64,000 nucleotides of DNA from Escherichia coli (GCF_030384885.1 NZ_CP128613.1); one strand, 5' to 3'. Counted from the stretch's first letter, positions 8,717 to 49,941 are shown. Notes: a model not told the origin generated them from the letters alone. Numbers and translations: made by a program.

Positions 8717-9319
8717 TTATACCGCCTCAGTCAATTCAGGCTGAGGCGTTTCTACTCCCTCCGCATGAATCAACACCAAACCCGGATGATGCCACAAACT
8801 GGCTGGTGTTACGGTTTTACGCTCCCACGGAATCGAACCTAAAAACCAGAATTTCCAGAAAGTGAGTTTTGCGTTCGGATTGCTATTTAGCAGTTCTCCA
8901 AACGTCTCTATTTCACCCACCGGAATACATAACGCCTCTTTATAAATATCAAAAACGAATTTTGAGCAGAACTGGCGGGAAGATTCGTATTTAAAGCCGG
9001 TGTGGTAGAGCTTATGCAACCGTCCGGGGACCTTTTCGACCAGAGCAAGTTTTTGCTCTGCGGTTAAACCTCCTGCGAGGCGGCGAACACCGTAGCGTTG
9101 ATCGGTCGACCGTTCAATAAATCGTGACAAAGTTGTGATTGTGGAGAGCGGAACTCGACTCTCCGCAACCAGGTAATCATCACCGTCATGTCCGATGATT
9201 ATCCCCACATGGTTGCTCCAGCATTTCGAGGCTGCAGAGATTTGCCCAAACAGGCGAGCACCGATGCAGGTAAAAACAATATCACCGGTTTCATATTTAG
9301 CTGGGTAATTTATTTTCAC
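8717..9319 (-). CDS. yebB: DUF830 family protein
   Basis: 200-aa ORF convergent on ruvC; translation recognised as YebB. Confidence 0.82.
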
Positions 9320-9412
9320 TATATCAATCCATTATTTATATATAAAACAGCATCTATCTTTCGTGATGGTAAAGCATTAGCATTGTATTATAATAATGAC
9401 AAGGAATGTTTT

Positions 9413-10237
9413 ATGCGGTTATTTATTAATGTGATAATTATAGTTTCGATCAGTCAATGCGTGAATGTATTTGCTCAAGATAATGTCATCCGCTATCCCT
9501 GGCGATATGGACGTATTTCTTTAAATGAGAATAATGAGTTTGTGCCTCAAATTATTCATATGCGTGATGATATCTACGGCGTGGGTGAAGCTGGTGCAAG
9601 CCTTAACGATGCGAGAATGGCGCAAAGTGGTGTCGCCGTGAGGCTTAGCGTTATACAGCAGGGGCAGGTGGTGAATGCTTTACTGGATTTCTACAATAGC
9701 AATAATCAACCTGCTTATATCTTTGAAGGTGGTTTGATGCCTTGCAATAAAGCCTTTGACATCACAACAAGCAACATTGTCCTTGATGGGATGTGTGGAA
9801 TTTATGATGGGGTCGATGGCTGGCAAGTTATTCCTGCGGGTGATCATTATAAAGAATCATTTTCACTCACTCAGGCTTTTGAATTTCTGCCGGGAAAACA
9901 TCATTATAAAATTAATGCCGGAAGTTTTATCATCAGAGTCGGGGATGATATTTTTGCAAGAGAGGACGCCGAAAGCATTCTTTTTGATTTGATTAACTGG
10001 CGATATGGCTATGTGCTAAAAAGTTATGAAAGGGTGTCGAAGTGGGATTTAATGGCAGGGACTTATGTACTGCCTGAATACTCGGGGGATAAAAGAATGG
10101 ATGAGTATCGAATTTACTCAAACCAGGTGTCGATTGATCTTAATGGTGACGAGTTAGCACATACGGAGTCCTATCAGTGGCGAATTGATAGCGGAATGAT
10201 CCCGGAAAAATTCAGCGTTCAGGAACTCGCTGAATGA
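9413..10237 (+). CDS. Hypothetical secreted protein (signal peptide), unknown family; not part of the K-12 gene order as I recall it
   Basis: 274-aa ORF from ATG 9413 with AAGGAA RBS 6 nt upstream; N-terminus MRLFINVIIIVSISQCVNVFA/QD looks like a SPase I signal peptide; AT-rich codon usage; track ORF from 9188 overlaps yebB and is not the likely start. Confidence 0.6.
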   Translation: MRLFINVIIIVSISQCVNVFAQDNVIRYPWRYGRISLNENNEFVPQIIHMRDDIYGVGEAGASLNDARMAQSGVAVRLSVIQQGQVVNALLDFYNSNNQPAYIFEGGLMPCNKAFDITTSNIVLDGMCGIYDGVDGWQVIPAGDHYKESFSLTQAFEFLPGKHHYKINAGSFIIRVGDDIFAREDAESILFDLINWRYGYVLKSYERVSKWDLMAGTYVLPEYSGDKRMDEYRIYSNQVSIDLNGDELAHTESYQWRIDSGMIPEKFSVQELAE

Positions 10238-10274
10238 ATCGTCCTCTACCTGCTTGCCAGATACAGAGGCGCGG

Positions 10275-10859
10275 ATGAATTTATCAAGCGTATTCAATCA
10301 GCTTTTAATCTCATTTGCTCTTGCCGGGACGTTGATATTAAGCAGCTATCTCATGAAAGCTCACTACCCACGTTTCAGGAAGCCAATTGCGCTCTTTTAC
10401 TTCTTTTTAGCGATTTATACCAGTTATGCTGCCGTTCAGGAGTATGAGTACCACCGCAATAGCTTGACTACGCTCGCAAAAGTTTCTTCGATTCGTTATA
10501 CCAGTAATTTTAAGCGTAGCGCCTCGCACTCCTGCAATTTACTGCGGGGAGGAAGGATTGATTGCTCGGGGCTGTATGCCTATGACCTGACCTGGCAGAT
10601 TGACGGTAAGACCTGGAATTTGCATGTTGAGGACAAGCGTATAAAACCAGGAATCACCATGTGCGTGAAGGTTGTAAAAGATCGCCCCGCCATCGGGAAA
10701 CCCTGTGAAAACGTGTTTTTCAATATCAGCCCTTTGCCGATTCTGATAGCTATATGGGCAATAAGCGCATTTATATTTGCGGTCTTACTCCTTCACCAAC
10801 TAAAAAAATGCCGCGAATGGAAGCACGCCAGCAAGGAACGTGGAAAAATTGGCCATTAG
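10275..10859 (+). CDS. Hypothetical membrane protein, three predicted TM helices with Cys-rich loop, unknown family
   Basis: 194-aa ORF from ATG 10275 with GAGG RBS; 37 nt after upstream ORF stop; hydrophobic helices near N-terminus (x2) and C-terminus; basic C-terminal tail; AT-rich. Confidence 0.55.
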   Translation: MNLSSVFNQLLISFALAGTLILSSYLMKAHYPRFRKPIALFYFFLAIYTSYAAVQEYEYHRNSLTTLAKVSSIRYTSNFKRSASHSCNLLRGGRIDCSGLYAYDLTWQIDGKTWNLHVEDKRIKPGITMCVKVVKDRPAIGKPCENVFFNISPLPILIAIWAISAFIFAVLLLHQLKKCREWKHASKERGKIGH

Positions 10860-10957
10860 AAGTCAAAGAAAGAGTGCGATGTAAGGTGATTCATAGAAAA
10901 TTTCAGATACCGTGAGCCAAAGGATTATCAGTTCTGAAATGATTTAATATCATCCCT

Positions 10958-10977
10958 CGCTGGATATCTATCCAGCA
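10958..10977 (+). promoter_or_regulatory. LexA (SOS) box of ruvAB operon
   Basis: cgCTGGATATCTATCCAGca, CTG-N10-CAG palindrome about 50 nt upstream of ruvA start; matches the known ruvA SOS box. Confidence 0.8.
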
Positions 10978-33709: not shown

Positions 33710-34010
33710 CATTTAAGCTGATGACCACCACGCTTTTTATTGACCATTTTGCACGCAAACTGGAAAACCTGGCGTCGTCATCTATTCTTAAAGGGCAAGG
33801 CAACTAAGCCTGCATTAATGCCAACTTTTAGCGCACGGCTCTCTCCCAAGAGCCATTTCCCTGGACCGAATACAGGAATCGTGTTCGGTCTCTTTTTATC
33901 TGTTAAAAGCCAGAAGCATTCCCTTCGCTGACTTTATAGTCAACCATAACACACACTCTACTGTCTGAGTCCAGCGTTTTTTAACATTCTTGTTAAGATT
34001 ATGTGATCTT
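33700..34010 (-). ncRNA. ryeA: Antisense sRNA RyeA (SraC) overlapping sdsR; boundaries approximate
   Basis: Inferred from the known antisense arrangement at the yebY-pphA locus; ends not determined from sequence. Confidence 0.35.
33795..33897 (+). ncRNA. sdsR: Small regulatory RNA SdsR (RyeB)
   Basis: Sequence gcaaggcaactaagcctgcattaatgcc...ggaccgaatacaggaatcgtgttcggtctcttttt recognised as SdsR; 3' terminator hairpin plus T-run; sigma-S-like -10 (tctattctt) just upstream. Confidence 0.75.
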
Positions 34011-48741: not shown

Positions 48742-49410
48742 TCCTTCCTCAATCTTGAGTAACCCCGTCGTTGAAGGGTTACTCAATTCATCCTGATTAT
48801 ACGCACTGTCATGGTGCAACTGCTTCAATTTAAAACTCTGGTCTGACTTCAAATAATTATCATATTATTTATTTGCGTAACGGGATATCAGAAAAAGATA
48901 TTTAGCCCATTAATTTATTAGGATGTTTACATCGGATTTGTGATTAAGCGTGTTATTATTTATTAGCGAAACGTTTCTCTCTTGATTTTTTTGCGCATTC
49001 ATCAATTTTTCTTATTTTAAATTTACAATACCTTTGGGGATTGACTTCTCTTTGGGGTGATTGATAGCCGTTAACTGACTGTTTTATGAGAAAAAGTGAT
49101 ATAACTTTTTATTCATTGCATAGCAGAAAATGTGATATTGCACGCACTATGTAATAACTTCTCCCATTGGCCTGGAACAACTGAACTTATTGAACTATGT
49201 TAGAAAATACGTCAGTTTAAGTATCTGCCTGAACTGGCAAGGTTAAGCACAATGATATATCGGCGCGTATTCCGTTGCATAAGTGTGCAAAAAAAGTGGA
49301 AGACGTATCGAGATTTGTGCGTCTGATCGAGACATGTTTAAAAATGGCTTGCCATAATTAACGTTGTATGTGATAACAGATTTCGGGTTAAACGAGGTAC
49401 AGTTCTGTTT

Positions 49411-49554
49411 ATGTGTGGCATTTTCAGTAAAGAAGTCCTGAGTAAACACGTTGACGTTGAATACCGCTTCTCTGCCGAGCCTTATATTGGTGCCTCATGC
49501 AGTAATGTGTCAGTTTTATCTATGTTATGCCTGCGGGCGAAGAAAACAATCTAA
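49411..49554 (+). CDS. yobF: Small protein YobF
   Basis: 47-aa [50 protein letters not shown] ending 12 nt before cspC; below the ORF-track size cutoff. Confidence 0.8.
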
Positions 49555-49566
49555 GGAATTTTTCAA

Positions 49567-49776
49567 ATGGCAAAGATTAAAGGTCAGGTTAAGTGGTTCA
49601 ACGAGTCTAAAGGTTTTGGCTTCATTACTCCGGCTGATGGCAGCAAAGACGTGTTCGTACACTTCTCCGCTATCCAGGGTAATGGCTTCAAAACTCTGGC
49701 TGAAGGTCAGAACGTTGAGTTCGAAATTCAGGACGGTCAGAAAGGTCCGGCAGCTGTTAACGTAACAGCTATCTGA
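49567..49776 (+). CDS. cspC: Cold-shock-domain protein CspC
   Basis: 69-aa ORF; RNP motifs KGFGFI and VFVHF. Confidence 0.95.
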
Positions 49777-49823
49777 TCGAATCCACTGATCTGAAGTGTG
49801 AAGACACTTCAATCTCGCTATAA

Positions 49824-49849
49824 AGCCTCGTCGAATGCGAGGCTTTTTA
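49824..49849 (+). terminator. Rho-independent terminator after cspC
   Basis: agcctcg-tcgaat-gcgaggct hairpin followed by T5. Confidence 0.8.
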
Positions 49850-49941
49850 CTTTGTTTTATCTTCGCTCCTGGCGTTCGGATATTTGCCCGCCGCGTGATT
49901 CGCGTTACACTTGCGGCCTTTAGTATCCTGCCGGAGTTGTC

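Follow-up and report, generated by a model that had tools for sequence, protein, structure and literature searches.

An intact, rare gene between yebB and ruvA in Escherichia coli as a probable orphan member of a type VI secretion immunity protein family

Results

The DNA analyzed here is one strand of 64,000 nucleotides from Escherichia coli (GCF_030384885.1, NZ_CP128613.1), hereafter the window, and the gene in question, which we call gene A, lies on its plus strand at 9413-10237. Genes around it are arranged in the order aspS-nudB-yebC-ruvC, yebB (minus strand), gene A (plus), gene B (plus) and ruvA-ruvB. Over the cassette that was queried, the window matches the E. coli 2013C-4282 chromosome at 100% identity. 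A preliminary description based on the DNA alone had proposed that gene A encodes a secreted protein of no recognisable family, possibly an effector, an inhibitor or an envelope-acting factor. Sequence comparisons place it instead in an unnamed family of immunity proteins with signal peptides, members of which accompany M35-like effectors of type VI secretion systems (T6SS), and we consider gene A to be probably an orphan member of this family.

Coding sequence and start codon

Direct reading of the sequence gives an ATG at 9413, a TGA at 10235-10237 and 274 codons, corresponding to a precursor of 274 amino acids (aa) and a predicted mature protein of 253 aa. The ratio of nonsynonymous to synonymous divergence (dN/dS) between gene A and its orthologues is 0.19-0.26, and gene A is therefore a protein-coding gene under purifying selection and not a chance open reading frame (ORF). 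A Shine-Dalgarno sequence, AAGGAA, is found at 9401-9406 on the plus strand with a 6-nt spacer to the ATG, just as the preliminary description had it, and an equivalent AAGG motif is kept 5' of the orthologues in loci L012, L013 and L003, with a GGA-containing ribosome-binding site (RBS) in L013 and L003.

The frame can alternatively be opened from an ATG at 9188, which creates an antisense overlap with yebB. This longer ORF was already recognized in the preliminary description, and it is the one used by RefSeq/PGAP in E. coli 2013C-4282, where gene A is modeled as a 349-aa protein from 9188 and yebB is cut to 187 aa. Orthologues are 273-274 aa long, and in-frame stops are located 7 codons 5' of the equivalent ATG in Pseudocitrobacter vendiensis (L013) and 5 codons 5' of it in a metagenome-assembled enterobacterial genome (MAG, L003). 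Because orthologous frames carry stops this close to the same ATG, the RefSeq model is too long, and comparative evidence favours the 9413 start, which had been preferred from the outset, together with a full 200-aa YebB. PGAP did pick the 349-aa model in several genomes, and one cluster of 156 members has as its representative a gene call that is extended in much the same way, to 342 aa. However, the extension is antisense to the yebB coding sequence and no RBS is present at 9188, making it highly unlikely that the true product is the 349-aa protein with the hydrophobic stretch retained as an uncleaved, internal membrane anchor.

Signal peptide, cysteines and composition

The N-terminus of the 274-aa precursor, MRLFINVIIIVSISQCVNVFA followed by QD, has one basic residue, an 18-residue hydrophobic core with a peak 11-residue Kyte-Doolittle hydropathy of 3.0, and V and A at positions -3 and -1. 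Hydropathy and the -3/-1 rule predict a Sec signal peptide at residues 1-21 (9413-9475, plus strand) with cleavage between VFA and QD, in agreement with the classic signal peptide described earlier, and the product would accordingly be exported by Sec. This type of site is conserved across the gene A subfamily as NVFA/QD, NVCA/ND, NAFA/ND and NVFA/GE (the slash marks the cleavage), and sites with FA followed by S or A recur in some distant family members. Hydropathy revealed no transmembrane-like segment in the remainder of the protein. A lipobox of the form [LVI][ASTVI][GAS]C is absent at the end of the signal peptide, since the residues before Cys16 are I-S-Q, which puts Gln at position -1, and a bacterial lipoprotein was ruled out on this basis. 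Orthologue P0006 does not share Cys16.

Cys111 and Cys128, whose codons span 9743-9796 on the plus strand, are the only cysteines of the mature protein. In the alignments both are invariant in the gene A subfamily and Cys111 is nearly invariant family-wide; the two probably form a disulfide in the periplasm. With 6.3% Tyr, 7.9% Asp and 8.3% Gly and a pI of 4.7, the mature protein is only mildly rich in the three residues for which it had been singled out.

Family membership

Curated libraries gave no hint of a relationship: gene A has no match in Pfam, NCBIfam, PADLOC, PHROGs or PDB sequences, and to this extent the absence of a recognisable family stands. It does not extend to profile searches. 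A profile built from five gene A orthologues was compared with 1.84 billion representative proteins and produced 41 matches at E<=0.001, with E-values from 8e-17 to 1e-4, a few of them being fragments or unrelated repeat proteins. P0013, P0018 and P0039 were set aside as repeat artefacts with many short repeated matches. The best non-self matches (E 8e-17 to 1e-10) are aligned over nearly full length, and most of the remaining family members are 270-315 aa long and likewise align with gene A nearly end to end.

Common to the family are the motifs C...F.ITT.NI.LD, FLPG.H.Y.I and IRSNQV.I.IDGD in addition to the cysteine pair. An N-terminal hydrophobic segment is present in 33 of 33 aligned members, which show no other transmembrane-like segment by hydropathy. 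No Pfam domain was found in these 33 proteins, and the five-orthologue and 33-sequence profiles retrieved only unrelated matches from PDB sequences (E 2.1 and 0.22). Homology thus defined, along with a signal peptide predicted in silico, groups gene A with the immunity proteins of vgrG-linked M35/aspzincin-like effectors described below.

Effectors encoded next to family members

Genomic context was read on contigs of nine distant family members. On seven of these the family gene is located directly 3' of an ORF of 186-301 aa that overlaps or follows the 3' end of vgrG, and the DNA upstream of family members matches annotated E. coli vgrG genes. Among the nine contigs is one with a tandem of two effector-immunity pairs and one on which tssF lies downstream; one contains an effector remnant only, and one is a short contig showing no effector. 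The ORFs preceding the family genes carry DSQ.STLCHE.SHF, which includes HExxH, and NAYNIE.YF, as well as GGMGT.D in all but the 186-aa one. A profile of these effectors matches the peptidyl-Lys metalloendopeptidase 1g12 (E 7e-6), the AsaP1 catalytic domain (E 7e-5) and Pfam Aspzincin_M35, and its PDB matches at E<=10 are M35 entries only (1g12, 2x3a, 2x3b). A position 3' of the effector gene combined with a signal peptide are traits of immunity genes for effectors acting in the periplasm.

RefSeq annotates modules of PAAR, VgrG, "peptidase M35" and a hypothetical protein in E. coli. The type located at ansP-yncG is found in 135 of the 5,426 E. coli genomes, among them Nissle 1917, CFT073 and 83972, and the "hypothetical" protein of this N96/Nissle-type module is 28% identical to gene A (BLASTP, E 2e-14). 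L009, an effector-immunity locus from outside E. coli, had no match in E. coli by megablast.

Two published studies bear on these modules. In one, an M35-peptidase of a phylogroup B2 E. coli was toxic to E. coli when targeted to the periplasm but not when cytoplasmic (PMC7904677). The other concerns E. coli PAR, whose M35-PAR (AKO63_2955) kills E. coli and whose AKO63_2956 neutralises this toxin when the two are co-expressed (PMC10673891). We located two tandem VgrG-M35 effector-immunity modules in the PAR T6SS cluster at the metV tRNA locus (L023 15770-24429; NZ_CP012379.1 2965770-2974429). In the second module vgrG is broken by a frameshift, in keeping with PMC10673891, where VgrG and DUF2345 are separate ORFs, and is followed by a 262-aa and then a 308-aa protein. 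The 262-aa protein matches the effector profile at E 4e-76, and the 308-aa protein matches the family profile at E 1e-84 and the gene A subfamily profile at E 4e-14; a 203-aa PAR protein matches the latter at E 1e-11. RefSeq labels all four PAR effector and immunity genes "hypothetical protein", though one pair has been tested in PMC10673891.

Family members also occur in less regular settings. N96, one of the 19 E. coli genomes that carry gene A (see below), has a PAAR-VgrG-M35-immunity module at ansP-yncG (L018 3037-7125) in which the M35 effector is split into two fragments and the immunity gene 3' of it is intact; in unbroken form this module is the type present in 135 genomes. In KE48 (L020 5948-6733, NZ_CP141085.1) a second family member of 261 aa follows the cognate immunity gene and has no effector of its own, making the locus a small immunity array. 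The 385-kb "plasmid" of KE48 carries the chromosomal genes narI, nhoA and yddE and may be misassembled or a chromosomal fragment.

Predicted fold

AlphaFold 2 (AF2) run with only the five orthologues gave an unusable model (pLDDT 38), while the 33-sequence alignment raised pLDDT to 76 with a pTM of 0.70. The resulting model of the gene A protein has a beta-sandwich at about residues 25-176, a long helix at 179-205 and a confident C-terminal hairpin at 231-244. Top Foldseek ranks were occupied by four chains of AsaP1 (E 1e-5 to 1e-4), followed by BsuPI, the intracellular proteinase inhibitor of B. subtilis. For three of these chains the AsaP1 match spans about 104 columns at 2.8 A. Structure matches in AFDB50 were to enterobacterial "uncharacterized" family members and to sponge "lysine-specific metallo-endopeptidase" precursors.

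AsaP1 contains both a propeptide and a catalytic domain. We assign the match to the propeptide because 1g12, an aspzincin represented by its catalytic domain only, is absent from the structure match lists and because gene A is all-beta in the matched part. On this assignment, the beta-sandwich of the predicted gene A model is superimposable on the AsaP1 propeptide (2x3a/2x3b/2x3c) or on BsuPI (3isy). Similarity to either protein is undetectable at the level of sequence (Pfam, PDB sequences), and gene A has an extra C-terminal module of helix and hairpin. A further difference from the AsaP1 propeptide is that the family is encoded as a separate polypeptide 3' of the protease gene and not as an N-terminal pro-region. 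The AsaP1 propeptide is reportedly inhibitory. The effector thus resembles an aspzincin catalytic domain by sequence, and its immunity protein resembles an aspzincin pro-domain by predicted fold.

Distribution and recombination at the yebB-ruvA site

Genes A and B were found at 95-100% identity in 19 of 5,426 complete E. coli genomes. In the other matching E. coli genomes (5,397) only the last 77 bases before ruvA match, and the common haplotype has yobI, a gene for 21 aa annotated in O157, at the position of genes A and B. Compared with this haplotype, the replacement segment spans 8940-10949, with its left breakpoint in yebB and its right junction at 10949/10950: sliding identity to O157 falls from 92-98% to 60-85% from about 8940, and 98.7% homology returns at 10950. 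GC content is 41.5% in gene A and 44.8% in gene B, compared with 50% in the window. We found no direct or inverted repeats flanking the segment. With no flanking repeats, insertion sequence elements or integrase genes, insertion of a mobile element was ruled out.

The yebB gene of the window (8717-9319, minus strand) is a divergent allele encoding a YebB-family permuted papain-like enzyme (NCBIfam NF008547, E 8e-115). Alleles at least 95% identical to it are found only in the same 19 genomes that have gene A; the yebB of 5,379 other genomes is 80-90% identical to it, with about 82% for those listed. The carrier allele is a mosaic, with a 3' half 92-98% identical to O157 and a 5' half (8940-9319) at 60-85%. 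Its protein is equally distant from common E. coli YebB (87.5%) and from YebB of other genera (85-89%). Linkage between gene A and yebB is explained by the recombination breakpoint inside yebB, and a functional link between gene A and YebB is not supported.

Outside E. coli gene A is scarce. Its close relatives form six clusters among 5.8 billion proteins, and a scan of about 100,000 species representatives with the five-sequence alignment returned two carriers, Escherichia sp. E1V33 at 94% and Pseudocitrobacter vendiensis at 71%. Further carriers are P. corydidari and, at 49%, a MAG. Wherever flanks are available, which is the case in three taxa besides E. coli, the gene is found between yebB and ruvA. 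Synonymous divergence between the window and E1V33 is 0.10-0.15 in yebB and gene A and 0.39 in the adjacent ruvA, pointing to horizontal exchange by recombination through conserved flanks. Altogether a segment of about 2 kb, comprising the 5' half of yebB and genes A and B, appears from these comparisons to spread by homologous recombination via conserved ruvC and ruvA flanks.

A palindrome upstream of ruvA, CTGGATATCTATCCAG, is located at 10960-10975, 10 nt to the right of the junction, and forms the boundary of the conserved control region of ruvAB. Because it agrees with the consensus for LexA boxes, CTG-N10-CAG, we take it to be the ruvAB LexA box. In a hairpin scan the palindrome at 10959-10976, GCTGGATATCTATCCAGC, which is followed by a T-run, scored as terminator-like. 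Given the short distance of 10 nt between this element and the right junction, transcription of genes A and B could read into ruvAB. Rfam matches elsewhere in the window are the antisense pair of small RNAs SraC/RyeA and SdsR/RyeB and a cspA thermoregulator (33757-33901, 49391-49851), ordinary E. coli features unrelated to gene A.

Gene B and the variable islet

Gene B (10275-10859, plus strand) is oriented like gene A and encodes a 194-aa protein predicted by hydropathy to reside in the inner membrane, with two N-terminal transmembrane helices, a periplasmic domain with four conserved cysteines, a C-terminal transmembrane helix and a basic tail. It has no match in Pfam, NCBIfam or PADLOC, and only four homologue clusters were found, one of them from E. 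fergusonii (89% identity). In the MAG (L003) the gene A orthologue is followed by a gene B homologue of 45% identity. There is no second gene after gene A in P. vendiensis, and in Escherichia sp. E1V33 the place of gene B is taken by an unrelated, Cys-rich multi-transmembrane protein of 228 aa. Absence of gene B in Pseudocitrobacter and its replacement in E1V33 mean that gene A has no obligate partner, and an obligate A-B pair was ruled out. Homologues of the 228-aa protein occur at the same site without gene A in Salmonella serovars Kua, Kuessel and Pomona.

The yebB-ruvA site is therefore a variable islet across Enterobacteriaceae (window 9320-10949; L012 6854-7540; L013 6822-6958; L024 7001-7693). 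It is occupied by yobI in most E. coli and by genes A and B in 19 E. coli genomes and the MAG. Occupants other than yobI are all predicted envelope proteins without an assigned function. Gene B could conceivably be a second orphan immunity protein. We found no description of this site as a variable islet in the searchable literature.

Discussion

The reading we favour, and hold to be somewhat better than an even bet, is that gene A encodes an orphan member of the T6SS immunity family, a periplasmic protein of the protease-inhibitor type directed against M35/aspzincin-like zinc-metallopeptidase effectors. Among the three roles suggested in the preliminary description the inhibitor is favoured by the position of family genes and by the predicted fold, while the effector is left unsupported, with no catalytic motif in the protein and no secretion system nearby. 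The gene is not located directly downstream of a cognate effector; it is preceded by yebB, which is encoded on the other strand. Nothing resembling an effector turned up when the 64-kb window was translated in six frames (best E 2.2), and it is for this reason that we regard gene A as an orphan. Its dN/dS and its intactness in all carriers are consistent with a stand-alone gene that is still under selection. Most likely gene A is a rare defensive gene and not a new kind of factor.

A possible sequence of events can be outlined from the predictions. The precursor would be exported by Sec and cleaved after Ala21, and Cys111 and Cys128 would then form a disulfide in the periplasm. The core, a beta-sandwich resembling the AsaP1 propeptide, would bind an incoming effector and block its active site, so that the cell would be protected from attackers with an M35-like effector even though no effector gene is adjacent. 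Inhibition by mimicry of a prodomain, and protection itself, we infer from the model and from the family context.

The closest points of reference are the PAR immunity partner (by gene order AKO63_2956) and the "hypothetical" proteins of Nissle 1917 and CFT073, which belong to the same family as gene A (BLASTP identity 25-28%, E about 1e-14). They share with it a Sec signal peptide, a length of 270-315 aa, the first cysteine pair, FLPG.H.Y and SNQV.I.(I/L).G(D/N). In contrast to these proteins, gene A has no adjacent vgrG or effector and is located at the core site yebB-ruvA.

Orphan T6SS immunity genes of Vibrio cholerae, Bacteroidales and Salmonella are stand-alone genes that protect against non-kin attack. 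Gene A resembles them in the lack of a cognate effector, patchy distribution, low GC content and horizontal exchange. It differs from them in standing alone at a conserved housekeeping locus, where alleles replace one another and no repeats flank the segment, and in lying neither in an array next to a T6SS nor on a mobile element.

An analogous logic is known from Pseudomonas aeruginosa, where PA0261, an immunity protein that has a signal peptide and needs DsbA-formed disulfides to function, binds and neutralises VgrG2b, a periplasm-acting zinc metallopeptidase (PMC6899460). Here the distinction rests on effector type and not on sequence comparison: the C-terminal domain of VgrG2b (VgrG2b-Cter) is classified among thermolysin-like gluzincins, in which Glu serves as third zinc ligand (PMC6899460), whereas effectors of the gene A family carry the aspzincin GTxD and their profile did not pick up the gluzincin.

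Several observations weigh against an orphan immunity function. Gene A is only 18-28% identical to every effector-linked family member, and we found no effector-paired immunity protein more than 28% identical to it. Many family members, including those of PAR, Nissle 1917 and CFT073, have a loop of about 15-20 residues following Cys128 and a second, C-terminal cysteine pair; the gene A subfamily has neither, and by this comparison it may have changed function. Orphan immunity genes are more often found in arrays beside T6SS or vgrG islands, and for such a gene a fixed place in the core genome, the same in four taxa, is unusual. Two supporting arguments also contain a step of our own: the matched range in AsaP1, which would fall on the propeptide, is not reported by the tools, and the 262-aa and 308-aa proteins of PAR are equated with AKO63_2955 and AKO63_2956 from gene order only.

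These observations give some room, though considerably less than we grant to orphan immunity, to a descendant of the immunity family that has taken on a role outside T6SS, either as an inhibitor of another metalloprotease (endogenous, from a host or from another microbe) or as an envelope component acting with gene B or YebB. The isolation of the subfamily, with its low identity to effector-linked members and shortened loop, would fit such a change, as would purifying selection without a nearby effector. Gene A is always found beside yebB at one chromosomal site in four taxa, which could suggest a shared function, but this linkage is explained simply by the breakpoint inside yebB; moreover, E. 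coli genomes without gene A nearly all encode YebB, which carries no signal peptide. Wherever a second gene follows, its product is an inner-membrane protein whose periplasmic part is rich in cysteine, yet gene A occurs without gene B in Pseudocitrobacter and with an unrelated partner in E1V33. Neither an M35-like protein nor another candidate target is encoded nearby in the 64-kb window.

It is improbable that gene A is the relic of a lost effector lineage, neutral in a rare haplotype and without a present function. Its rarity (19 carriers among 5,426 E. coli genomes, two among about 100,000 species representatives) and the lack of a cognate effector in the profile search and in the window are what such a relic would show. 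However, the gene is intact and full-length in 19 E. coli, E1V33, two Pseudocitrobacter species and the MAG, down to 49% identity, its dN/dS is not about 1, and its RBS, start codon and signal peptide are conserved. That gene A is itself a secreted effector, toxin or envelope-acting enzyme we consider hardly credible: a signal peptide, low GC content and patchy distribution would suit it, but no catalytic motif or enzyme-family match was found, the predicted beta-sandwich is like those of protease inhibitors and pro-domains, and homologues occupy the immunity position 3' of a toxin gene, the PAR homologue being by gene order the toxin-neutralising gene.

Returning to an orphan immunity function, a more speculative extension, which we offer tentatively and think rather doubtful, is that the effector-immunity pair is a "split zymogen", with the effector derived from an aspzincin catalytic domain and the immunity protein from the inhibitory propeptide of that aspzincin, which would now have a gene and a signal peptide to itself. 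Gene A would then be a free-standing inhibitor of the prodomain type maintained as a rare defence allele spread by recombination, and the yebB-ruvA site would be an "immunity islet" where gene B and the 228-aa protein are orphan immunity proteins as well.

T6SS immunity proteins are a known kind of protein, and by gene order at least one member of this family has been tested experimentally. The stakes in practice are modest; neither T6SS immunity nor the orphan immunity gene is a new concept. What may be new is the propeptide-like fold of the family, for which we found no description in the searchable literature, and the yebB-ruvA site as a variable islet. Our analysis gives a testable function to a RefSeq "hypothetical protein" with a wrong start and, likewise, to an unannotated family in Nissle 1917, CFT073 and PAR. 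The structural link between the immunity family and aspzincin propeptides suggests a mode of neutralisation and a possible origin of the effector-immunity pair. If gene A does protect against T6SS effectors of the M35 type, the rare yebB-ruvA haplotype would be a case in which defence against other bacteria resides in an allele of a core locus and not on a mobile element.

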